The position numbers and the translations under genes are program-made. From the NCBI GenBank assembly GCA_000092065.1, contig CP000593.1: a DNA stretch of 64,000 bases, one strand, 5' to 3'. Position 1 is the first letter of the stretch. The number at the start of each line of letters is the position of its first letter. Below are positions 2,703-47,770 of this stretch, piece after piece. This stretch comes from Ostreococcus lucimarinus. Lineage: Eukaryota. The notes beneath the pieces were generated by a model, which ran no database searches, was not told the origin of the DNA, and saw only the letters and a list, made by a program, of their open reading frames with translations.

Positions 2703-3085
2703 ATCGCGCGCATCGCTCAAACTTGTAACATTCGCCCCCTCGTCCCGAGGACCCATAAAGTCATAAAGCGTCCATCGCGTCGTCGCGCGCACCGTCGCGT
2801 CTCGCCGCGCCCTTCGCCGCGCGCCCCGCGGGCTTCGCGCGTCGCGCGCGACGCCGACGCCGACGCCTCGCCTCCGACCGCGCGCGCGTCGACCGCGTCG
2901 ACCGCGGCGACCGCGCGTTTCGTCGCGCGGTCGCGTGACGTCACGCGCGAACCGTCGACGTCGACGATTCGTGTCGCGCGACCGACCGCTCGTATGCGTA
3001 AACAGTGACGCGCGAAAATGACAAAATTCGACGTCACCGTCGACGGCGCGCCGCATCGCGTCACTCTCGCACACGCACGCACGAC

Positions 3086-3742
3086 ATGTTCGCCGTCACG
3101 ACTCGCCCCCAACTCGCCGCCCGCGCCGTCGTCAAGACGCAGCGCGCGCACCGCCGCGCCTCCGTCGCGGTCCGCGCCGAAAACGACGTCTCCAAGGCGG
3201 TCGAAGAGGCGAACTCCGAGTGGAAGGATGCCGACGCGGCGTCCAAGCAGCCGACGATGCGCGTCGACGCGATCGACCCGGCCGACGGCTCCATCGCCGA
3301 AGCGGCGCCGCTCGGGAACGATAACTCCATGCTCGACTCCGTCATGCTCGCGTTCAAGGACTCGCGCGCGGTGGAGACGATCAACGGTCGCGCGGCGATG
3401 ATTGGGTGGACGGCGGCGCTCTACGTGGAGCTGACGTCGAACACGAGCTTCATGCACCAATTGTTCAACGAACGCACGTTCACGCTCGCGGACGGCATCA
3501 CGCGCACGTCCACGTACCCGGCGGCCGGGTTCTTCCTCGTGCCGGCCTGCGTGATCTTGACCTTGGCGTCCTCTTTGGCGCCGGCGCTCAAGAAGTCGTC
3601 GCCGAACGGCTTGGACGAGGCGCCCGAGGCGTTCGGGCCGTTCCGCGCGGAGGCGGAGATGACGAACGGTCGCGGTGCGATGATCGGTCTCGTCGCGTTG
3701 CCGATCGTCGAAAAGATCATGGGCGGCTCCGCGCTGTTCTAA
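3086..3742 (+). CDS. Early light-induced protein (three-helix ELIP/LIL family)
   Basis: Two LHC motifs (ETINGRAAMIGW and EMTNGRGAMIGL) flank a middle hydrophobic helix; transit-peptide-like N-terminus; first plausible ATG at 3086. Confidence 0.75.
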   Translation: MFAVTTRPQLAARAVVKTQRAHRRASVAVRAENDVSKAVEEANSEWKDADAASKQPTMRVDAIDPADGSIAEAAPLGNDNSMLDSVMLAFKDSRAVETINGRAAMIGWTAALYVELTSNTSFMHQLFNERTFTLADGITRTSTYPAAGFFLVPACVILTLASSLAPALKKSSPNGLDEAPEAFGPFRAEAEMTNGRGAMIGLVALPIVEKIMGGSALF

Positions 3743-3963
3743 TCGAACGATATCGGACAAAGATAAACAAACAACATTTTTTCAAGCAAGGATGGGCAGC
3801 GCTAACGATGTGCGCTCCGCCGCGCCAATTTTCACGACGATGATCGAAGACTTCTTACTTAGTCAGTTAGTGTAACAACACGAAAACATTTGCGCATCAA
3901 TCATTAAAACAATTGCGTCTAACTATGGCTTCGCGAAAGCCCGCGTCCGCCACGTCGAACGCT

Positions 3964-4608
3964 TCACGCGAACTCGTACGCGCGGCGCGCGAGTCGGGCG
4001 ATTTCCGCGTCGTCCGCGCCGCGAGCCACCGCCGCGTACATCGCATCCTCGCGTTCAGACCACACCATTTTCTTTGCAGAGATGTGAATCGGCGGTAAAA
4101 TCACTTTTTCGTCCGTCACGGCTAAGATGTCCTCCACGGACCAAAATTTTTGATCTAAATATTCGTCGGCGCACATCGTCTTGCGCGCGATTTCCTCCTC
4201 CGTCAGCGTCGCCGCGAGGACCACGTTAATATCGCACGTCCCGTTCCCCGCCGGCTCCTGCACTCGAAATTCCCAATTCATCGTGCTCGTGGTCACGAAT
4301 CGAAACCGCTCCGTGTCGATCTCGATCCCGATGTCTCGCTTCGCGTGCCGTCTCGCCGTCTCCTCCACCGTCTCCCCCGTGCGCATCCGTCCACCGATGT
4401 ACCACCACGTCCCTTTCGCCGGTTCGTGCTTGCGCAGCCCGAGCAAAACCTCTCCCTTTTCGTTCGTCAGCAAGCAATCGACGCAGCCCTTCACCAGCGC
4501 GTCCAAAGCGCGTCCGTACTCGTCGTCCGGCAGGAACAGCCCGCTCGGTTTGTACGTCCCAGTCTCGAAGTGGTGGTGTCGCGTCGGCGGTCGCGTCGGC
4601 GCCGGCAT
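3964..4608 (-). CDS. Nudix hydrolase
   Basis: Nudix box GGRMRTGETVEETARRHAKRDIGIE; ATG confirmed at 4608. Confidence 0.75.
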   Translation of the reverse strand: MPAPTRPPTRHHHFETGTYKPSGLFLPDDEYGRALDALVKGCVDCLLTNEKGEVLLGLRKHEPAKGTWWYIGGRMRTGETVEETARRHAKRDIGIEIDTERFRFVTTSTMNWEFRVQEPAGNGTCDINVVLAATLTEEEIARKTMCADEYLDQKFWSVEDILAVTDEKVILPPIHISAKKMVWSEREDAMYAAVARGADDAEIARLARRAYEFA

Positions 4609-4817
4609 CGTCTCGACGATCGCCCGCGTCTATCGTCGCTCGTCCGCGCGCGCGCGACCGGTCGAAGCGCGTCGGCGCGTCGCGACGTGCGCGTCGCGCC
4701 TCGGAGTCGCGCCGAAAAGTGTCCCGAGCGAAGTGGATAAAGTCGTCACTCCGCCGCGACGTCGCGTCGCGCGCGCGATCGCGCCCGACCGTCGTCGACG
4801 TCGTCCAACGAAGCGCC

Positions 4818-5810
4818 ATGGGCATTCGCGCCGCGTGCGCGGTGGACATGCGCGGTAAGATCGCCGTGGTCACCGGCGCGAACACCGGGATCGGGTTGCA
4901 GACGGCCAGGTTGCTCGCGGACGCCGGCGCGCGCGTCGTCATGGCGTGTCGCTCGATCGACAGAGCGAGGGCGGCGCTCGAGTACGCGTCAAACGGGGGC
5001 GCGAACGACGTGGCGGTGATGGCGCTCGATCTGAGCGACGCCGCGAGCGTCAGGGCGTTCGCGGAAAAGTTTGGGAAGGAGTATGAAAAATTGGACGTCT
5101 TGGTGAATAACGCGGGATTGAACGGGGCGAGCGGATACAGTGGACCGAAGACGACGAAACAAGGGTACGACATATGCATGGGGGTGAATTATCTCGGACA
5201 CTTCATGCTCACGTCGTTGTTGTTGCCGCAGTTGATGAAGAGCGACGGCGCGAGGGTGGTGGCGTTGAGTTCGGTGACGACGTGGTTCGGGTCAAACAAG
5301 TATCAGTACTACTACAAGGGTGCGAGTAAGACGAAGGGGAACTACGGGTCGAGCAAGTTGGCGTGTTTGGCGATGACGGTGGAGCTGCAGCGACGATTGG
5401 ATGCGGCGTATCCGGATAACAAGATCGTCTGCGCCGCCGCAGATCCGGGCTTCGTGGCGAGCAACATTTGGAGAGATTACAACCCGGTTTTGCGAAAGAT
5501 CATGAGCATCTTGGCCTTGACGCCCGCGCAAGGAGCGATGACGAGCGTGAACGCGGCGTCGCTGCCGTCCATAACAAAGGCGACGCTTTACATGCCGTTC
5601 AAGATTAAAATGTCCAAGCTGTTCAAGATGCACAAGAGCGCGACGTACATGTTCGGCATGCCTCTCTTATCCAAAGCGTTCGCCGGTTTCGGCGCCGATG
5701 CCATGGCGCCGCGCGCGAAAAACGCCGAGTCTAACGCGAAGCTTTGGGATTTGAGCATCGAGTTTTGCAAGGAGAACGGCGTCAAGAGCTGCGAGGCGTA
5801 CAATTTGTAA
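4818..5810 (+). CDS. Short-chain dehydrogenase/reductase (retinol dehydrogenase/WWOX-like)
   Basis: VVTGANTGIG cofactor motif, NNAG, YGSSK catalytic motif; ORF start 4719 is GTG, first ATG is 4818. Confidence 0.8.
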   Translation: MGIRAACAVDMRGKIAVVTGANTGIGLQTARLLADAGARVVMACRSIDRARAALEYASNGGANDVAVMALDLSDAASVRAFAEKFGKEYEKLDVLVNNAGLNGASGYSGPKTTKQGYDICMGVNYLGHFMLTSLLLPQLMKSDGARVVALSSVTTWFGSNKYQYYYKGASKTKGNYGSSKLACLAMTVELQRRLDAAYPDNKIVCAAADPGFVASNIWRDYNPVLRKIMSILALTPAQGAMTSVNAASLPSITKATLYMPFKIKMSKLFKMHKSATYMFGMPLLSKAFAGFGADAMAPRAKNAESNAKLWDLSIEFCKENGVKSCEAYNL

Positions 5811-41483: not shown

Positions 41484-41597
41484 TCTTCCTTAACTCAGCT
41501 GGTAGAGTGTCAGACTGTTAGGAAAAAGTCTCCGTCGAATATGACGGCTGCTCCGATAGAGATCTGGAAGCCGCGGGATCGAAACCCGCAGGAAGAG
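41484..41597 (+). tRNA. trnN(GUU): tRNA-Asn (anticodon GUU, 41517..41519) with 41-nt intron (41521..41561)
   Basis: Hand-folded cloverleaf. Acceptor TCTTCCT/AGGAAGA (7 bp), D-stem ACTC/GAGT with AGCTGGTA loop. Anticodon stem TCAGA/TCTGG, loop CTGTTA|intron|A. T-stem GCGGG/CCCGC with loop ATCGAAA, discriminator G. Intron at the canonical 37/38 position and pairs with the anticodon region (AGTCT:AGACT). Confidence 0.8.
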
Positions 41598-41599
41598 AT

Positions 41600-41609
41600 G
41601 TGTCGACAT
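41600..41609. promoter_or_regulatory. ZDRE-type palindrome GTGTCGACAT directly 3' of the tRNA
   Basis: Perfect match to RTGTCGACAY, 2 nt after the discriminator base; lies inside the 223-bp repeat. Confidence 0.4.
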
Positions 41610-41619
41610 CAAACCTTAC

Positions 41620-41624
41620 TTTTT
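41620..41624 (+). terminator. Probable RNA polymerase III terminator (T5 run)
   Basis: TTTTT located 23 nt downstream of the tRNA 3' end. Confidence 0.5.
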
Positions 41625-41840
41625 CCCATACCCGATTGTCCGTGATGGAAAAGCGACACGACAACACTGTGACTTTCGTCGTTTCGGGGTGACGGATAGT
41701 ACTTTAAAAAATTTATCGCTATGAGTAATAAAAATAAACTTTTTTTTTGAGTTGGGGCACCCCAACATGATAAAACCGCACATCGACGTTGATGTACCGC
41801 ATGTAAGATTTCTCCAGAACCAATCGTGTGAGTGAAGTGG

Positions 41841-42338
41841 TCAAGCCAAGCCGCGTAACTCATCTACCGTAAATTGATACTTGTCGAGACTGCGCTTCGA
41901 AGGCAGCGTGCCGCGCGCTCGGGCATTCTTGAGGCACGTCTTGCGCAGTATTCCTTTTGCGTGCTGCTTGTAATAATTGAGTTGTCTGTAGTTACCATCG
42001 CCGCCGTCCCGCTTCGGCGTATATTGAGCTCTGCTGTAGGCTGGACTCTCGTCCACGTTCTCGCGGCACGCGTGTTTCTGGCTGCGTCCAGCAGCTCGGG
42101 AGTTGAATAAGCCGTCACGCTTCTCTCTCATGTAGGCACCTTTACGTTGATGGAGCTCTCCAGCTGGAATGTCCTTTTCGAGAACTCTCACGTCCGCGTC
42201 GCCAAACGTGAAGATTGGATGTCGTGCGTATTTATGCGAGGCAAGGCGCGCTCTGAGCGAACCCGTCGTCGATCCGATGTACGTTTTGTTACATTTCGCA
42301 TTATCGCTAAACATTTCGTACACGCATCCCGACGGCAT
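41841..42338 (-). CDS. GIY-YIG nuclease-domain protein (homing-endonuclease-like)
   Basis: N-terminus GCVYEMFS...KTYIGSTTGSLRARLASH fits the GIY-(10-11 aa)-YIG...R...H module, followed by VLE. Basic C-terminal half; ATG confirmed at 42338. Confidence 0.6.
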   Translation of the reverse strand: MPSGCVYEMFSDNAKCNKTYIGSTTGSLRARLASHKYARHPIFTFGDADVRVLEKDIPAGELHQRKGAYMREKRDGLFNSRAAGRSQKHACRENVDESPAYSRAQYTPKRDGGDGNYRQLNYYKQHAKGILRKTCLKNARARGTLPSKRSLDKYQFTVDELRGLA

Positions 42339-42516
42339 TTGTCCTGGTTACCTATCTATCCCTAAGAAAATATTGTTGCCAAAAGTGCCTCCTCCTGCGG
42401 TTTGCAGTCACATCCGAGAGACCATAGGTACGCGTATCGCTGCGTGGGCTGCAAGGTCCGGAATGTAGATACCGAACCGCCTGATTTCACACCTGGACGT
42501 TCGTGATCCGTCGAGA

Positions 42517-42707
42517 CCTGACGAAATGACGAACTTGTTTTGTCGTCCACAAATTCGTCAACCCGTCGTTCGGTGACACTTTGTGTGTACCAATGATGAA
42601 AATGACGAAATGTTAAAATATTTTAATGTTTATTTTTATTTTAGATCTATGACAAGCAACAGTGTGGACCTTTATGAAAACAGTTCGTCATTCGTCATTT
42701 CGTCAGG
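42517..42707. repeat. 17-bp perfect inverted repeat (42517..42533 / 42691..42707) around an AT-rich core, with reiterated AATGACGAA/TTCGTCATT motifs
   Basis: CCTGACGAAATGACGAA versus its exact reverse complement TTCGTCATTTCGTCAGG. Further copies of the TGACG-containing motif near 42601 and 42684. Confidence 0.85.
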
Positions 42708-42772
42708 ATCCAAACCATGGTCTTTTTGGTGTCTCGTTGAGTCTTCATATTGCAAATGTACGAATTACAAAA

Positions 42773-43069
42773 TTAGTATGAGCACCAGACGACCGCCGGC
42801 GCGAGCTCCGTCTCCCCTGTGTACCCATTGTCCTTCAGCCACTCGAAGCACCCGTCGCGGTGAATTTCCCAATAGACGCCCTTCTCGTCTCTACCTTGCC
42901 TCAGGTGGTCCTCTTCCATTGGGACCCTGTGGCCCTTTTCCTTCTTGAAGAAGTCCTTGAGCTTATTGCCGACCTTCGTCGCGCTATCTTGACCGCGCGC
43001 AGCCGCTGGCAACCACGTCTGGTATTCGATGAAGATGTCACTGTGTGCATAAAAATGACTTGCGCTCAC
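42773..43069 (-). CDS. Orphan ORF without ATG start (possible terminal exon or gene fragment)
   Basis: 98-codon frame opening with GTG directly after an in-frame TGA; composition looks coding (GVYWEIHRDGCFEWLKDNGYTGE). A 63-nt GTAAGC...CAG intron (43041..43103) could link it to upstream sequence, but no initiator ATG was found. Confidence 0.25.
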   Translation of the reverse strand: MSASHFYAHSDIFIEYQTWLPAAARGQDSATKVGNKLKDFFKKEKGHRVPMEEDHLRQGRDEKGVYWEIHRDGCFEWLKDNGYTGETELAPAVVWCSY

Positions 43070-43169
43070 ATCGGTGTGGGCTCACTATAAAGGACAAGCT
43101 TACATGTCGGAAGAGTTGCCCGAGTCCACATCTCCACCCTGTTCCGCTTCAGTGTCACCTAGAAAGACA

Positions 43170-44810
43170 TCAGACTAAGCCGTCGTTTTGAGAGGGCGCC
43201 GACTTTGCCTTTGGTTTTGCCTTCGACTTTGAAGTGGGTTGCGGCCTGATCTCCTCTTCGATCTCCTCGTCGTCGACCAAATCTTCGTCGATTTCTTCGT
43301 CGTCTTCGTCATCGACTTCGTCGTCTTCGTCTTCGTCGTCTTCGTCTAGAAAGACATCACCCATGACTGCTCTCCAGCCATCAGAACCCATTTCGAATTC
43401 TTCGTCGGTCAAGAGGCAAGAGTCCAACGTTGATTGAATTTCATCGTATTTAAGATCCTTGCCAATGAACACCAGTTCTTGTCGGCGATCACCATAAGGC
43501 CCCTCCCAGTCTTTACGAAGTTCTTGCTTTATCCCCTGTGAGCCGACCCAAGCATTTTTATTCAGCGCGGTCCATCGGCTTGATCCTTCGAGAGAGTAAA
43601 TATTACCAGCCTGACTGAAAACAATTATCAAGTCGTGGGCATCACTGAGCCACGTTACACCCTTCGAACGTAGCAGCACACCAATTTCACCTTCCCTTTT
43701 ACGGCGCTTGAGTTTCATCGCTTCTTGTCGCGCTCGAATATCTTTCACTGCACTCCAGTCTACACTTGGTGTCTCTTCATCTTTTTCTTCATCACGGTCA
43801 TCGGCCTCGAGGGAGCTGAAGAAGCGCTCGACAAATGAGCCTAAAAACCGTTTGGGATGAAAAGGTCTTCTGGCTCGGTAAATGAAAGACGTAATACCGA
43901 ACCGACTATCGTGACGTGTTTGGGAAGAACTTGGTGCAAGCGTGACCTCGCTTAAGGCTGTTTCTCTCATGCGAGCTCGCTTACAGCATGGAGACTCACC
44001 TTTGTCCCTAGCGCCGGCGCAGCATGACTTCACAGATGTTGCTTCTATCTCTTGTTCCCATGTTATGAAACCAGCAAAGTCATTCTCTTTGTAAAGTTTT
44101 GTATTGACGATTCGCGTAACGTCGATCGCGCCGTTCACAGCTTCAAGAATATCAGCACGTGAATTGAGAAGTTGTATCTGCGCTTTAATCTCGGCGAGTT
44201 GTTCGTCATCGACAGTGTCGACCTTGTTCAATACGACGACATTCGCGTACTCTATCTGTTCAGCCAACAATTGAGAGTAAGACTGCCTGTTCACAGCTGA
44301 CGCCCTGAAAGAATCAATCATGTCGAGAAAGTCACCTGCAGCGATGACCGTCACGCACGTATCCAGCCGCGCCAGTGTGCTCAAATGTTCATGCTCATCA
44401 ACGTGCGCAGCTTCATGATCGTGATCGTCCTCACAATTTGCGAAGAGTTTCGCAATTTCCGCCGGTTCCGACACTCCTGATGCCTCTACGATCATGTAGT
44501 CAAAATTGCCACTCTTGGCCATGTCCCCGATTTGTTTTACAAAGTCTCCGCTCAACGAACAGCACACGCATCCGTTCTGCATGGCAACCACCTCGTCGCT
44601 CTGCAGCAAAGCGGAATCATCGATTAATTTTTTGTCGATGTTCAACTCCGCGACGTCGTTCACGACGACGGCACACCGAAACTTTCCGTTCGCGTCTCGC
44701 TTAGCTTCGAGCACGCGTTTCAGAGTTGTCGTCTTCCCAGCGCCGAGGAACCCGCACAGCGTTGTCACCGGCAATCGATTATGATTGGCGATTGCGGCGG
44801 GTGTGGACAT
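43170..44810 (-). CDS. COG0523/CobW-family metallochaperone GTPase (ZNG1/ZCP-like zinc chaperone)
   Basis: P-loop GFLGAGKTT, canonical CxCC metal motif (NGCVCCS), His-rich stretch DDHDHEAAHVDEHEH, CobW_C region and a long Asp/Glu tail. ORF start 44915 is GTG, first ATG is 44810. Confidence 0.9.
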   Translation of the reverse strand: MSTPAAIANHNRLPVTTLCGFLGAGKTTTLKRVLEAKRDANGKFRCAVVVNDVAELNIDKKLIDDSALLQSDEVVAMQNGCVCCSLSGDFVKQIGDMAKSGNFDYMIVEASGVSEPAEIAKLFANCEDDHDHEAAHVDEHEHLSTLARLDTCVTVIAAGDFLDMIDSFRASAVNRQSYSQLLAEQIEYANVVVLNKVDTVDDEQLAEIKAQIQLLNSRADILEAVNGAIDVTRIVNTKLYKENDFAGFITWEQEIEATSVKSCCAGARDKGESPCCKRARMRETALSEVTLAPSSSQTRHDSRFGITSFIYRARRPFHPKRFLGSFVERFFSSLEADDRDEEKDEETPSVDWSAVKDIRARQEAMKLKRRKREGEIGVLLRSKGVTWLSDAHDLIIVFSQAGNIYSLEGSSRWTALNKNAWVGSQGIKQELRKDWEGPYGDRRQELVFIGKDLKYDEIQSTLDSCLLTDEEFEMGSDGWRAVMGDVFLDEDDEDEDDEVDDEDDEEIDEDLVDDEEIEEEIRPQPTSKSKAKPKAKSAPSQNDGLV

Positions 44811-44986
44811 GATGTACGGCGATCGACGTCTCCGCGCGCGAACGAGCCGAAGAGGCGTCGCGAAGTGCGGCGATGCGCGCGCGTCGTGCACGTGTCGACG
44901 ATTCGCGTCGTGCACGTGTCGAGGATCGTCGTACGCGACGCCCCGCGAAGCCCATCACGGATCGCGTCGCGACGCGCGTCGTAAAC

Positions 44987-45143
44987 ATGTCGACACGCAT
45001 GTCGACATATTTACCCACGCGCGTGTACGCATTGAACCCCGTGATGCATCTATATACGAAAAACGTCTCGACGCACATGTCGACATATTTCGACATATCC
45101 AAGTACCACCGAGATGTGTCGACACTGCGGCGGATGTCGACAT
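44987..45143. promoter_or_regulatory. Cluster of five perfect ZDRE decamers (RTGTCGACAY) in the COG0523/ZIP divergent promoter
   Basis: ATGTCGACAC 44987..44996; ATGTCGACAT 44999..45008; ATGTCGACAT 45077..45086; GTGTCGACAC 45116..45125; ATGTCGACAT 45134..45143. A one-mismatch copy GTGTCGACGA lies at 44892..44901. TATAAA at 45167..45172. Confidence 0.6.
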
Positions 45144-45368
45144 TTTGTCGTTCGCGAGTCGTGACTTATAAACGACCGCCCTCCATCGCGCCGGTTCGGT
45201 TCGTATGCCGCTTTAGTTTGTGCGCAGCCGCACTTACCGACGCCGGCGAAGACGACGACGACGACGGAAACGATGACGAACGAAAACACGAAGAACACGA
45301 AGACGACGATGCCGCCGCGCGAACGCGCACGCGGTGCGAGGACGGTCGAGCGACGACGAGGGCGAACG

Positions 45369-46802
45369 ATGCGCTGCGCGAGCGCGCTCGGTGGTGGCAT
45401 CGCGATCGTCGCGAGCGCGCTCGCGCAGCGCGGCGCGCACGCGTCCGGCGCGCACGCATTCGAATGGGCTGGAATCTTTGAGACGCCAGAGAATGAATAC
45501 GTGTGGCAGGCGCAAAAGGTGGCCGATAAGTACGCCGCCGATACCATGAAAATGGTCATCTACGACGAAATCGCCGCCGGACACGACGAGCTCGAAGCCC
45601 GCGAGGATAGCGGTGATACCGCAATCGGGGGAGCTTGTACGACGGCTAAGATACGAGATAGTGTTTTGACACCTGATAGTGGGTGTGTCAACCTTGAATT
45701 TGACAACACCTGGCACACGACGCCGTTTAAGATTAATACGACTGGCATCGACGCGATCTCAATCTTCGCTGAGCACGTTCCCACCGAGTTCGAGCGCGAC
45801 GCGCACTATCTCAAGGACCTCCACGGAGATGACGTGGTGCCAAAAGCTTCACTTCCCGAAGCATCCACCGTGAGCGAATCGAAATCAAAACCGTGGGCCA
45901 ACGCCATTGGGGCGGCAATTATCGTCAATATCGTCACACTTTCTGGTGTGGTCTTTCTCATCCCGAGTATCGCTAAGAAGCAGAAAGCGTACCCTGAAAC
46001 TGTGAGTTGCACAATTAACTCGTTTGCCGCCGGCGCACTTCTTTCGGCTGCGTTTTATCTGATGTTCTACGAAGCCACGCATTTAATCAAACCTGCTGGC
46101 TCGGATGAGGCAGAGCAGACCGCATGGTGGGCTTCCGCTTCTATCTTCGGCTTTCTCATGGCCTACTTCATCGACTTTGGTATCTCTGTCGTGTTCCCAA
46201 CTCTTGGAAATACAGCGAAGACAACCGATGCGGAACTTGCAGTCAAAGGCGCTCAAGATGACTGTGATACTTGTACTTGTAACTCACACAAGTATCGCGT
46301 TCGAAGTGGTATCATTCTTGGAGATTTCATGCACAACCTAGTGGATGGTATTTTCATTGGCTTCGGCTTTCTGAACTGCGACAGTACCATGGGATGGTCG
46401 ATCACCGCCGCGACCGTCTATCACGAAATCGCTCAAGAGCTTGCTGACTACTTGGTGCTCGTAGACCCCTTCCAGGGCGATCTCGCGCCGTTGCCGACGC
46501 TGACTTTAAACTTCGTTTCCGGCTTGAGTGTCATTCTTGGCGTCCTCATTAGTGTTGGATCGGGAAATAACAACGACTTCTGGCATGGACTGCTGCTCGC
46601 CTTCGGTGCTGGAGTCTATCTGCAAATCGCCGCCGCAGAGTGCATGCCCCGAGTATCAGTGAGCGCCACTTCACCTCGTCTTCGCGCGACGAGCATTCTC
46701 ACCTTCATCGTCGGCGTTGTTGCCATCAGTCTCGTGCTCCTCAACCACAAGCATTGCACAGGCGGTGGCGGTGGCGGAGACTCACACGCACACGCGCACT
46801 AA
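45369..46802 (+). CDS. ZIP-family (ZRT/IRT-like) divalent metal transporter with N-terminal extracytoplasmic domain
   Basis: ZIP signatures GDFMHNLVDGIFIG and YHEIAQELADY, multiple TM helices, Cys/His-rich loop (DDCDTCTCNSH), C-terminal GGGGGGDSHAHAH. ATG at 45369 gives a signal-peptide-like start (MRCASALGGGIAIVASALA); the upstream in-frame ATG at 45273 is also possible. Confidence 0.85.
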   Translation: MRCASALGGGIAIVASALAQRGAHASGAHAFEWAGIFETPENEYVWQAQKVADKYAADTMKMVIYDEIAAGHDELEAREDSGDTAIGGACTTAKIRDSVLTPDSGCVNLEFDNTWHTTPFKINTTGIDAISIFAEHVPTEFERDAHYLKDLHGDDVVPKASLPEASTVSESKSKPWANAIGAAIIVNIVTLSGVVFLIPSIAKKQKAYPETVSCTINSFAAGALLSAAFYLMFYEATHLIKPAGSDEAEQTAWWASASIFGFLMAYFIDFGISVVFPTLGNTAKTTDAELAVKGAQDDCDTCTCNSHKYRVRSGIILGDFMHNLVDGIFIGFGFLNCDSTMGWSITAATVYHEIAQELADYLVLVDPFQGDLAPLPTLTLNFVSGLSVILGVLISVGSGNNNDFWHGLLLAFGAGVYLQIAAAECMPRVSVSATSPRLRATSILTFIVGVVAISLVLLNHKHCTGGGGGGDSHAHAH

Positions 46803-47025
46803 TGAGAGCGGTAAAAAAATGTCAATTACTATCAAATCAAGTTGTGGCAAACACACCCACGGCCACTGACGGAGATCTATTTTTCAAGCTAGAGGATCAT
46901 ATAAATTGTAAATCGAAACGCTCTTCGTAATTTACGGCACCTGTTCCTCGATCTCCTGGCGAACATCGATGAATTATTTCGATAAGATGTCCCAGATGTT
47001 ACCCACACCACGGTACTTGTGAAGC

Positions 47026-47369
47026 TTAATCCAGATACGCGCGCACGCCTTTCTGAAGCATGGTCGGTACCTCGGCTTTCAACTTGTCTGGGAGCGTCGC
47101 GTCGGCGTCCTTGACCTCGCGCAGAAAATCGAGCACCCTATTGGTGGAGAACTGTCAGGGAAGGATCCAAGGTGGCGGCATTTGATACACAGGTTGCGCC
47201 AGGCTTTGTTAGACAGCAACGGACTCGATTTTACATCATCCGCCAGTATTGCAATTCCTACACGCTTCCCATTTAGCCAGTGCTTGGGCTCCTCGAATTG
47301 GTCTGTTTCGGGATTATACAGACTGAGCATCTCTGGGGTCAAATACTCGTCCCACACGGAGGCGTTCAT
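47026..47369 (-). CDS. Small orphan gene, 2 exons (47369..47235, 47151..47026); may be 5'-truncated at the repeat junction
   Basis: Two coding-looking frames join exactly by an 83-nt intron (47152..47234) with GTAAAA donor, CTAAC branch and pyrimidine tract + CAG. The open frame continues upstream to a TTTACAG acceptor-like site at 47419..47425, abutting the right repeat. Confidence 0.3.
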
Positions 47370-47432
47370 CAGGTGCCCATCGAGTTCCTTGTATTGCTTC
47401 AATCTCGTCGCGGTATCTCTGTAAACAATTTT

Positions 47433-47532
47433 GCTGGTAGAGTGTCAGACTGTTAGGAAAAAGTCTCCGTCGAATATGACGGCTGCTCCGATAGAGATCT
47501 GGAAGCCGCGGGATCGAAACCCGCAGGAAGAG
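47433..47532 (+). pseudogene. 5'-truncated copy of tRNA-Asn (D-loop to 3' end, intron included)
   Basis: Identical to 41498..41597 but lacks the acceptor 5' strand and D-stem 5' strand, so it cannot fold. Confidence 0.85.
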
Positions 47533-47534
47533 AT

Positions 47535-47544
47535 GTGTCGACAT
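47535..47544. promoter_or_regulatory. ZDRE-type palindrome GTGTCGACAT in right repeat copy
   Basis: Perfect RTGTCGACAY match, the counterpart of 41600..41609. Confidence 0.35.
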
Positions 47545-47770
47545 CACACCTTACTTTTTCCCACACCCGATTGTCCGTGATGGAAAAGCGACACGACAAC
47601 ACTGTGACTTTCGTCGTTTCGGGGTGACGGATAGTACTTTAAAAAATTTATCGCTGTGAGATTCACCCCCATGGGGGGAGCTCGGCTTCCCTGATTTTTT
47701 TGTCACTTTTTCACGACGCCGCGAACCCCTCGTCCCGAACTCCGAGACGCGACGCGAGACATCCATCCCA

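Follow-up and report, generated by a model that had tools for sequence, protein, structure and literature searches.

Polinton-like viruses and virophages repeatedly carry small, stand-alone GIY-YIG genes, and pieces of such viruses are found in the genomes of algae (PMC4642659, PMC3671162, PMC12220804). Examples are mavirus MV06, OLV1/OLV24 of Organic Lake virophage and metagenomic genes named 'GIY', all carried by viruses with a double-jelly-roll capsid and a primase/superfamily 3 (S3) helicase. Genomes of Ostreococcus contain 1–2 double-jelly-roll capsid genes of these viruses (PMC10120064). Here we describe a GIY-YIG gene in a 64,000-nt stretch of the Ostreococcus lucimarinus genome (contig CP000593.1, assembly GCA_000092065.1), which we refer to as the window. 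Our analysis makes it likely that this gene is a relic of a polinton-like virus at the edge of a tRNA-flanked island, and that it is a passenger rather than the engine of that island. Taken by itself, the open reading frame (ORF) is nothing unusual: the O. lucimarinus protein already has the UniProt label 'GIY-YIG domain-containing', and polinton-like viruses and virophages commonly carry GIY-YIG genes as accessories.

The window gene is like the described viral genes in its small, stand-alone form and in the type of virus that carries its relatives, and a 165-aa GIY-YIG protein of mavirus is among the Foldseek matches. Unlike them, the window family has no C2H2 zinc ribbon and possesses a conserved basic helical C-terminal extension of its own; the clade of the window protein carries a lysine at the position of the catalytic glutamate, and identity to the named viral proteins is only 14–25%. 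I-TevI, the intron-encoded homing endonuclease of phage T4, differs in further ways. The window protein has Lys66 at the equivalent of I-TevI E75 and lacks an I-TevI-type zinc finger or helix-turn-helix, its gene is not intronic, and the position of the gene beside a helicase is conserved. Endogenous polinton-like-virus fragments in algae likewise place a single viral gene and a truncated viral gene in a chromosome (PMC4642659; PMC10120064), whereas the fragment in the window sits in a tRNA-flanked island with non-viral cargo, a CobW-type GTPase and a ZIP transporter. Around the insertion sites of cryptophyte polinton-like viruses, a survey found no tRNA gene closer than 1 kb (PMC12220804).

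Source of the viral fragment

The GIY-YIG gene survives in a 1.3-kb viral piece at the tRNA-Asn-proximal edge of a 5.7-kb island. Four parts make up this piece, namely the 3′ end of a helicase gene, a 190-bp palindromic element, the GIY-YIG gene and 115 nt downstream of it (coordinates in Table 1; contigs are referred to by L numbers and proteins by P numbers). By blastn, the fragment is 94.7% identical to L016 (window 41720–43044), 94.8% to L015 and 93% to L008, and window 42516–43044 is 93.6% identical to L007. The helicase is cut off at 43044 in the window, while L008 and L007 run on upstream; a 98-aa 'ORF' at 42773–43069 amounts to the last ~90 helicase residues with a start codon borrowed by chance. 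Homologues of the GIY-YIG gene lie downstream of a gene for a PrimPol+DUF5906 (D5-like) helicase at 93% identity in L015 (P0003), 60% in L007 (P0019) and 51% in L009 (P0030). A gene of 421–528 aa separates helicase and homologue in L007 and L009, and none does so in L015.

L007 is a 13.6-kb contig that may be incomplete, compared with ~14–40 kb for genomes of polinton-like viruses. Its 446-aa protein, modelled via the 94% identical homologue P0300 (predicted local distance difference test score (pLDDT) 86.5), adopts a double-jelly-roll capsid fold, with Foldseek matches to PBCV-1 Vp54 and to the major capsid proteins (MCP) of SGIV and Sputnik (E 4e-17 to 1e-11, template modelling (TM) score up to 0.66). 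The 87 homologues in this capsid family are mostly on contigs shorter than 20 kb. The capsid, penton-like and ATPase-like ORFs of L007 had no Pfam match, and PDB searches returned nothing for the capsid, as single sequence or profile, or for the ATPase-like ORF; the 323-aa and 195+-aa ORFs had neither a Pfam nor a PDB match, and ATPase motifs were read by eye only. Because L007 encodes a predicted double-jelly-roll capsid protein together with a primase-helicase, the modelled structure identifies the source as a small virus with its own capsid and primase-helicase genes, which corresponds to a polinton-like virus. IMG/VR was scanned with three queries, the GIY-YIG alignment and the capsid and helicase of L007; none had relatives there, so this virus lineage lies outside that collection. 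Giant-virus and chlorovirus GIY-YIG proteins match at the fold level only, with 14–25% identity in Foldseek, and a prasinovirus or chlorovirus origin is not demonstrated. Cluster look-ups for ten distant relatives supplied no names of viruses or organisms.

The palindromic element upstream of the GIY-YIG gene folds as DNA at −36.9 kcal/mol (z −4.75). It is found in L008, L015 and L016 and twice in L007 (326–519 and 3808–4006), and is conserved at 92–98% in the main copies and 87% in the second L007 copy, which makes it a candidate promoter, origin or recombination site. We also considered a small transposon carrying the GIY-YIG gene alone, marked out by a palindrome pair or by a short inverted match to the tRNA 3′ end (41583–41597 / 42389–42403), and rejected it, since the whole 1.3 kb is collinear with the virus.

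The related copies are not all intact. GIY-YIG genes are disrupted in L008 (10001–10497, two frameshifts) and L016 (1696–2340, C-terminal frameshift), which could mean either that they are real pseudogenes in integrated elements that have decayed or that the long-read assemblies contain indel errors. Downstream of its GIY-YIG gene, L016 encodes a 776-aa cysteine-rich protein (2715–5045) with furin-like repeats (Pfam Furin-like_2, 3.6e-13), which is unusual for a small virus.

Family membership and the catalytic position

The 165-aa protein contains the motifs G4-C-V-Y7, K18-T-Y20-I-G22-S-T and R31-x3-H35. Residues 1–80 form the GIY-YIG core, residues ~86–116 a variable, low-confidence linker and residues 117–161 a basic helical extension. 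On the strength of its motifs, the initial annotation, made from the letters of the window, had proposed a GIY-YIG nuclease-like ORF, and relatives, profile and fold now bear out the family assignment. The expected match to the Pfam GIY-YIG profile (PF01541) came from the relatives rather than from the protein itself. At 16.7 bits, the window protein stays below the cut-off of 22.6, and no more than residues 4–37, in the N-terminal third, align; 13 of 16 close family members match (best E 6.5e-7), and relatives collected with the family profile score 26–38 bits, above the cut-off, over profile positions 2–74 of 78.

Searches of PHROGs and NCBIfam and a single-sequence search of PDB with the 165-aa protein gave nothing useful, and a profile of the 16 closest relatives had no match in PDB. 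A 30-member family profile matches the catalytic domain of I-TevI in PDB by sequence (E 5.6e-4 and 7.5e-3), the matches including the E75A (1mk0) and R27A (1ln0) crystal forms. The window protein has the β-β-α-β-α core fold of the GIY-YIG superfamily, with I-TevI as its closest fold match. Together, relatives, profile and fold establish the ORF as a genuine GIY-YIG-family gene.

Its homologues number 32, at 49–96% identity, and come from marine metagenomes. Among 1.84 billion representative proteins, the profile search found 1,203 relatives at E ≤ 1e-3 and only 6 at E ≤ 1e-30, and by these sequence counts the family is a narrow one within a broad one. Its members are small, stand-alone proteins of about 165–180 aa, with the core followed by the conserved basic helical tail, and small double-jelly-roll-capsid (polinton-like) viruses of marine picoalgae encode them directly after the PrimPol/S3 helicase gene. 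Residues 86–165 of the window protein match nothing in Pfam, NCBIfam or PHROG and contain only the family-specific basic helical region, and no NUMOD/IENR, zinc finger or helix-turn-helix DNA-binding motif was detected in the protein.

These data bear on two mundane origins, a conserved SLX1-type host gene and a chance ORF in GC-rich DNA, both of which we regard as extremely improbable. SLX1 does occur among the weak fold and sequence matches, and long chance ORFs are common in the gene-dense, 62% GC window. However, the closest fold is that of I-TevI and not SLX1, a Pfam scan found no RING/PHD domain, and the gene is absent at the syntenic site in the related contigs L011–13 and L014, so that the syntenic SLX1-type orthologue named beforehand as the alternative is not there. 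The 32 close homologues and the constrained family rule out a chance ORF. From SLX1, UvrC, Eco29kI and T4 EndoII generally, the window protein differs by the absence of partner domains (RING, the C-terminal part of UvrC), by the missing catalytic glutamate and by being non-syntenic in relatives.

Glu75 of I-TevI and Glu76 of UvrC bind the catalytic metal, and substituting them abolishes cleavage. Other active-site residues are retained in the window protein: Tyr7, Tyr20, Arg31, His35 and Asn79 are invariant in the family alignments and pair with I-TevI Y6, Y17, R27, H31 and N90. In the alignment to I-TevI, as in the HMMER alignment of the family profile to 1ln0, the family segment 'R-E-G-E-Y-I-R' falls on I-TevI 'E-R-E75-N-F-W-I'. 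Residue 66 is the position aligned with E75; at least 90% of 30 relatives have Glu there, and the window protein has Lys66. The segment reads 'R-K66-[GS]-A-Y-M-R', with Ala at position 68, in every one of the 16 full-length clade members (≥87% identical) as well as in the window protein. Of the motif string first read in this ORF, the G-C-V-Y, K-T-Y-I-G-S-T and R-x3-H elements are therefore present, but the 'E' is off the canonical place, where the equivalent of I-TevI E75 is Lys66. Because the canonical metal-binding glutamate is lysine across the whole clade, the alignments indicate a protein that is GIY-YIG by descent and fold and probably not an active canonical nuclease. It may have residual activity.

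Probable integration at the tRNA-Asn gene

The ORF was also noted at the outset as adjoining the intact tRNA end of an island, which is correct: an intact tRNA-Asn gene ends 243 nt from the ORF stop codon, and a truncated copy lies in the repeat at the far end (Table 1). ARAGORN found no tRNA in the window and missed this gene. The tRNA contains a 41-nt intron (41521–41561) at the canonical 37/38 position. The two direct repeats are 228 bp long and 98.7% identical (3 mismatches), and repeat A gives way to the viral fragment within a few bases.

Table 1 Features of the island and its borders in the window
Feature	Position	Strand	Details
Intact tRNA-Asn(GTT) gene	41484..41597	+	Rfam RF00005, 49 bits, model positions 1-71; cloverleaf read from sequence
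Direct repeat A	41498..41725	+	tRNA nucleotides 15-114 and 128 nt downstream
Segment missing in natural deletion allele	41639..42711	.	1,073 bp; L024, L025, L026, L027 and L030 at the same locus, also L028
Island between repeats	41726..47432	.	5,707 bp, 51.8% GC against 62.3% for the whole window
Polinton-like-virus genome fragment (predicted endogenous viral relic)	41726..43044	-	Collinear with virus-like contigs L015, L016 and L008
GIY-YIG-family ORF	41841..42338	-	ATG to stop, 165 aa; coordinates exact
Palindromic intergenic element	42517..42707	.	Inverted repeats; arms 17-24 nt, AT-rich centre; upstream of GIY-YIG gene
Viral PrimPol/superfamily-3 helicase 3′ end	42773..43044	-	~90 codons; matches C terminus of 733-aa helicases of L007 and L015
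CobW/COG0523 G3E GTPase, acidic tail	43170..44810	-	546 aa; Pfam cobW 5e-41, CobW_C 1e-18; GC3 0.525
ZIP-family metal transporter	45273..46802	+	Head-to-head with CobW; Pfam Zip 1.2e-21; GC3 0.618
N-terminally truncated, twice-frameshifted ORF	46977..47432	-	Three-frame translation; open up to the border of repeat B
Direct repeat B, far island end	47433..47660	+	5′-truncated tRNA-Asn copy (47433-47532) and the same 128-nt tail

When a circular DNA that carries a tRNA segment undergoes a single crossover with a chromosomal tRNA gene, the result is classically an intact tRNA gene at one end and a 5′-truncated copy at the other. Bacterial tRNA-targeted islands and prophages, which use tyrosine integrases and are bounded by attL and attR, show the same intact tRNA and 5′-truncated copy as direct repeats, and are also alike in foreign composition, cargo genes and absence from close relatives. 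The island in the window differs in residing in a eukaryote and in that both of its inner ends are truncated genes. Contigs from a sister lineage at ~92% nucleotide identity (L011–13) and from a more distant lineage at ~70% (L014) have the JmjC gene, the tRNA and the MJ1567-like gene adjacent to one another, without the island. Together with the homologues beside PrimPol/helicase genes on small virus-like contigs, this absence at syntenic positions upholds the early suggestion that the gene is mobile or selfish cargo.

The repeats have diverged by 1.3%, which equals the window-specific divergence of the relic (ORF 1.2%, helicase fragment 1.5%, non-coding sequence 1.4%). Such equal values fit one integration event that created the repeats after the split from the 8% diverged sister lineage.

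The tRNA-Asn gene is itself polymorphic among strains, through extra insertions with hallmarks of spliceosomal introns (GTAAGT ... CTGAC ... CAG); GT-AG-type introns within a tRNA gene are odd. A 100-nt insertion follows window position 41499, in the D-arm, in most wild contigs (e.g. L020 1546–1645, L021 3559–3658); this site and the 5′ border of the direct repeat are 2 nt apart. An 87-nt insertion after 41588, in the T-arm, is found in some contigs (L021 3383–3469, L023 963–1049, L026 1241–1327) and in the sister lineage (L011 9533–9620), and also in the repeat-B copy, after 47523. The tRNA of the window has neither insertion.

The island also carries cargo genes. GC content falls between ~38 and 48 kb of the window, and GC at third codon positions (GC3) is 0.53–0.62 in the island genes (0.60 in the GIY-YIG gene), compared with 0.71–0.82 in ten flanking host genes and 0.57–0.68 in the viral genes of L007. 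The island is compositionally foreign. Its CobW and ZIP genes form a combination linked to zinc homeostasis, and the pair may be cargo of the virus, foreign DNA from elsewhere or a host paralogue that has moved. A metagenome scan with CobW was swamped by low-complexity patterns and yielded only 30–50% identical relatives on short contigs. The intergenic region between the two genes (window 44843–45094) exists as two very different alleles: that of the window is ~250 nt long, and that of other contigs (L023 3473–3797, L025 111–423, L028 1690–1850 and 6630–6960) is ~325 nt long and unrelated in sequence. A 79-nt unit in this region is tandemly duplicated in L028. At the far end, the truncated and frameshifted ORF has no Pfam match; it occupies the spot expected for an integrase in a classical island.

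Deletion allele and permuted contigs

A look-up of the exact CobW protein retrieved contigs from independent assemblies, among which a natural short allele is present. Five contigs of this form keep the helicase fragment and CobW, and one, L026, covers the entire island from the JmjC gene to the MJ1567-like gene. The missing segment takes out the GIY-YIG ORF, the palindrome and the distal 87 nt of repeat A; the junction has 2 nt of microhomology, and the right edge coincides with that of the palindrome. Because the full allele is virus-collinear, the short allele is, judging from this comparison, a deletion and not an empty site. Contig counts do not represent allele frequencies here, as contigs that contain the gene tend to end at or near the repeat boundary at 43044 (L020 exactly there). 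Part of the wild population has nevertheless deleted the gene, so the host can apparently do without it, and the island would not depend on it for its maintenance.

Alleles with and without the gene at one locus could alternatively reflect ongoing homing, in which an active free-standing homing endonuclease cuts gene-less alleles and repair copies the gene in. The fold closest to I-TevI speaks for this, as do homing endonuclease genes reported from polinton-like viruses (PMC12220804). We consider homing very unlikely at this locus, since the gene-less allele also lacks the palindrome and the 87-nt repeat tail and is joined at microhomology, which has the look of a deletion rather than of an empty site. 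A lysine stands where I-TevI has its catalytic E75, the Pfam scan detected no NUMOD/IENR or zinc-finger DNA-binding motif, and a constant position beside the helicase in viral relatives of 50–60% identity fits a stable module gene.

In two contigs, L023 (1–3941) and L028 (1769–6988), the island ends are joined through one repeat, so that the island is circularly permuted, with the helicase-fragment or GIY-YIG side joined to the side of the truncated ORF and ZIP. L023 has the GIY-YIG gene, whereas L028 is of the deletion type and lacks it. Upstream of CobW, L028 further has a region with a light-harvesting-protein gene, and after ZIP another copy of CobW begins. These contigs may represent a circle, a tandem array, a second locus or mis-assembly through the 115–200 nt that are identical between repeats.

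The annotation had put the protein forward as an enzyme for mobility or maintenance of the element. In this scheme, a break or nick made by the protein would start excision, integration or replication of the 5.7-kb unit, and it is attractive in that the gene is the only nuclease-like one in the island, adjoins a repeat and a strong palindrome that might serve for nicking or as an origin, and is accompanied by contigs whose joined ends resemble a circle or tandem array. Other evidence runs the opposite way and leaves the scheme highly doubtful. The 228-bp direct repeats bear a Campbell-type signature that points to recombination and not to GIY-YIG cleavage, position 66 is lysine, the gene is part of a truncated 1.3-kb fragment, and five deletion contigs, as well as the permuted L028, do without it; the permuted contigs could moreover be mis-assemblies through the 115–200-nt identical repeat.

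Host copies and selection

The window protein is identical to proteins recorded at two loci of O. lucimarinus CCE9901 (XP_001421138.1/ABO99431.1 and XP_001422817.1/ABP01176.1). A third paralogue, XP_001421474.1, carries the UniProt label 'GIY-YIG domain-containing protein', and the 90%-identity cluster of the GIY-YIG paralogue has 898 members. Look-ups of this paralogue (P0389) and of the window ZIP protein returned no record. CobW variants of 507 and 510 aa from NCBI fall in one 90%-identity cluster. The two identical GIY-YIG proteins and the CobW variants suggest, at the level of sequence records, that at least part of the island has been duplicated.

Identical copies at two loci, a paralogue and an intact ORF are also what favours domestication, in which the alga would use the virus-derived protein, for example to interfere with prasinoviruses or polinton-like viruses or in DNA repair. 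Both folded domains are conserved in the clade, and it has been proposed that integrated polinton-like viruses serve as antiviral defences (PMC12220804). We view domestication as unlikely. The gene is deleted in several wild genotypes and absent from sister lineages, the ORF has accumulated substitutions as densely as the non-coding relic beside it (~1.2–1.5%), the L008 and L016 copies contain frameshifts, and the catalytic glutamate is missing. Between the window and L015, the ratio of non-synonymous to synonymous substitution rates (dN/dS) is 0.30, calculated from 21 differences, too few to decide on selection on the host copy.

Discussion

The arrangement is best explained by capture of a viral relic with the island. 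A circular DNA carrying a copy of the tRNA segment would have met the chromosomal tRNA-Asn gene and entered it by a single Campbell-type crossover, after the split from the 8% diverged sister lineage. Viral genes would then have been lost, and the GIY-YIG gene would have arrived as a passenger of the viral replication module. Because a position beside the helicase has been kept across relatives of 50–60% identity, a role in a replication or recombination module is favoured over that of a sporadic homing endonuclease. Its most likely task in the virus is to work alongside the helicase during replication or recombination, either by binding DNA or as a nuclease of weakened or altered activity. 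For the Lys66 clade, this would probably mean DNA binding without canonical cleavage, or else cleavage by means of a shifted acidic residue.

Several observations sit uneasily with a gene that is only a decaying passenger, or with the crossover proposed for it. No integrase or recombinase gene is recognisable in the island, so the Campbell-type step is deduced from the repeats alone, and attachment sites do not usually reach as far past a tRNA as this repeat does (128 nt), a feature that also sets the island apart from its bacterial counterparts. Lys66 is not relic decay: the same Lys66 protein is encoded beside an intact 733-aa helicase gene in L015, and the substitution is a clade trait and not host-specific decay. 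In the Lys66 clade, 13 of 85 and 9 of 49 sites vary in the folded domains as against 20 of 31 in the linker; because the folded domains vary far less, the protein is constrained somewhere, probably in the virus. Glu72 is invariant in the clade, and the protein might use this shifted acidic residue for cleavage. On the host branch, 3 non-synonymous and 3 synonymous substitutions are too few to test selection, and the intact host ORF, the identical protein at two loci and the paralogue could reflect retention for function.

A bolder possibility builds on the permuted contigs. The 5.7-kb unit might be, or recently have been, a circularising mobile element derived from a polinton-like virus, with a zinc-homeostasis cargo of use to the host and a tRNA-Asn segment carried for integration, present in multi-locus, tandem or circular forms in Ostreococcus, and with the Lys66 protein and the palindrome as its remaining replication or mobilisation module. 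We hold this to be improbable, and favour the relic as described above.

As a relic, the GIY-YIG gene gives both a date and an identity to an endogenous viral fragment in a 13-Mb alga, and it ties to Ostreococcus, as host, an uncultured virus lineage that is abundant in Tara and other marine metagenomes. Replacement of the catalytic glutamate throughout a constrained clade poses a small open question on non-canonical GIY-YIG proteins. For the alga, the gene marks the edge of a recently acquired, strain-variable island with a ZIP transporter and a CobW-type metal chaperone. Should the unit be a circularising element of viral descent, adaptive genes for metal acquisition would have a vehicle derived from a virus in an alga that is among the smallest free-living eukaryotes. 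If the island was delivered by a virus, marine picophytoplankton would offer a tangible example of nutrient-acquisition genes transferred by viruses.

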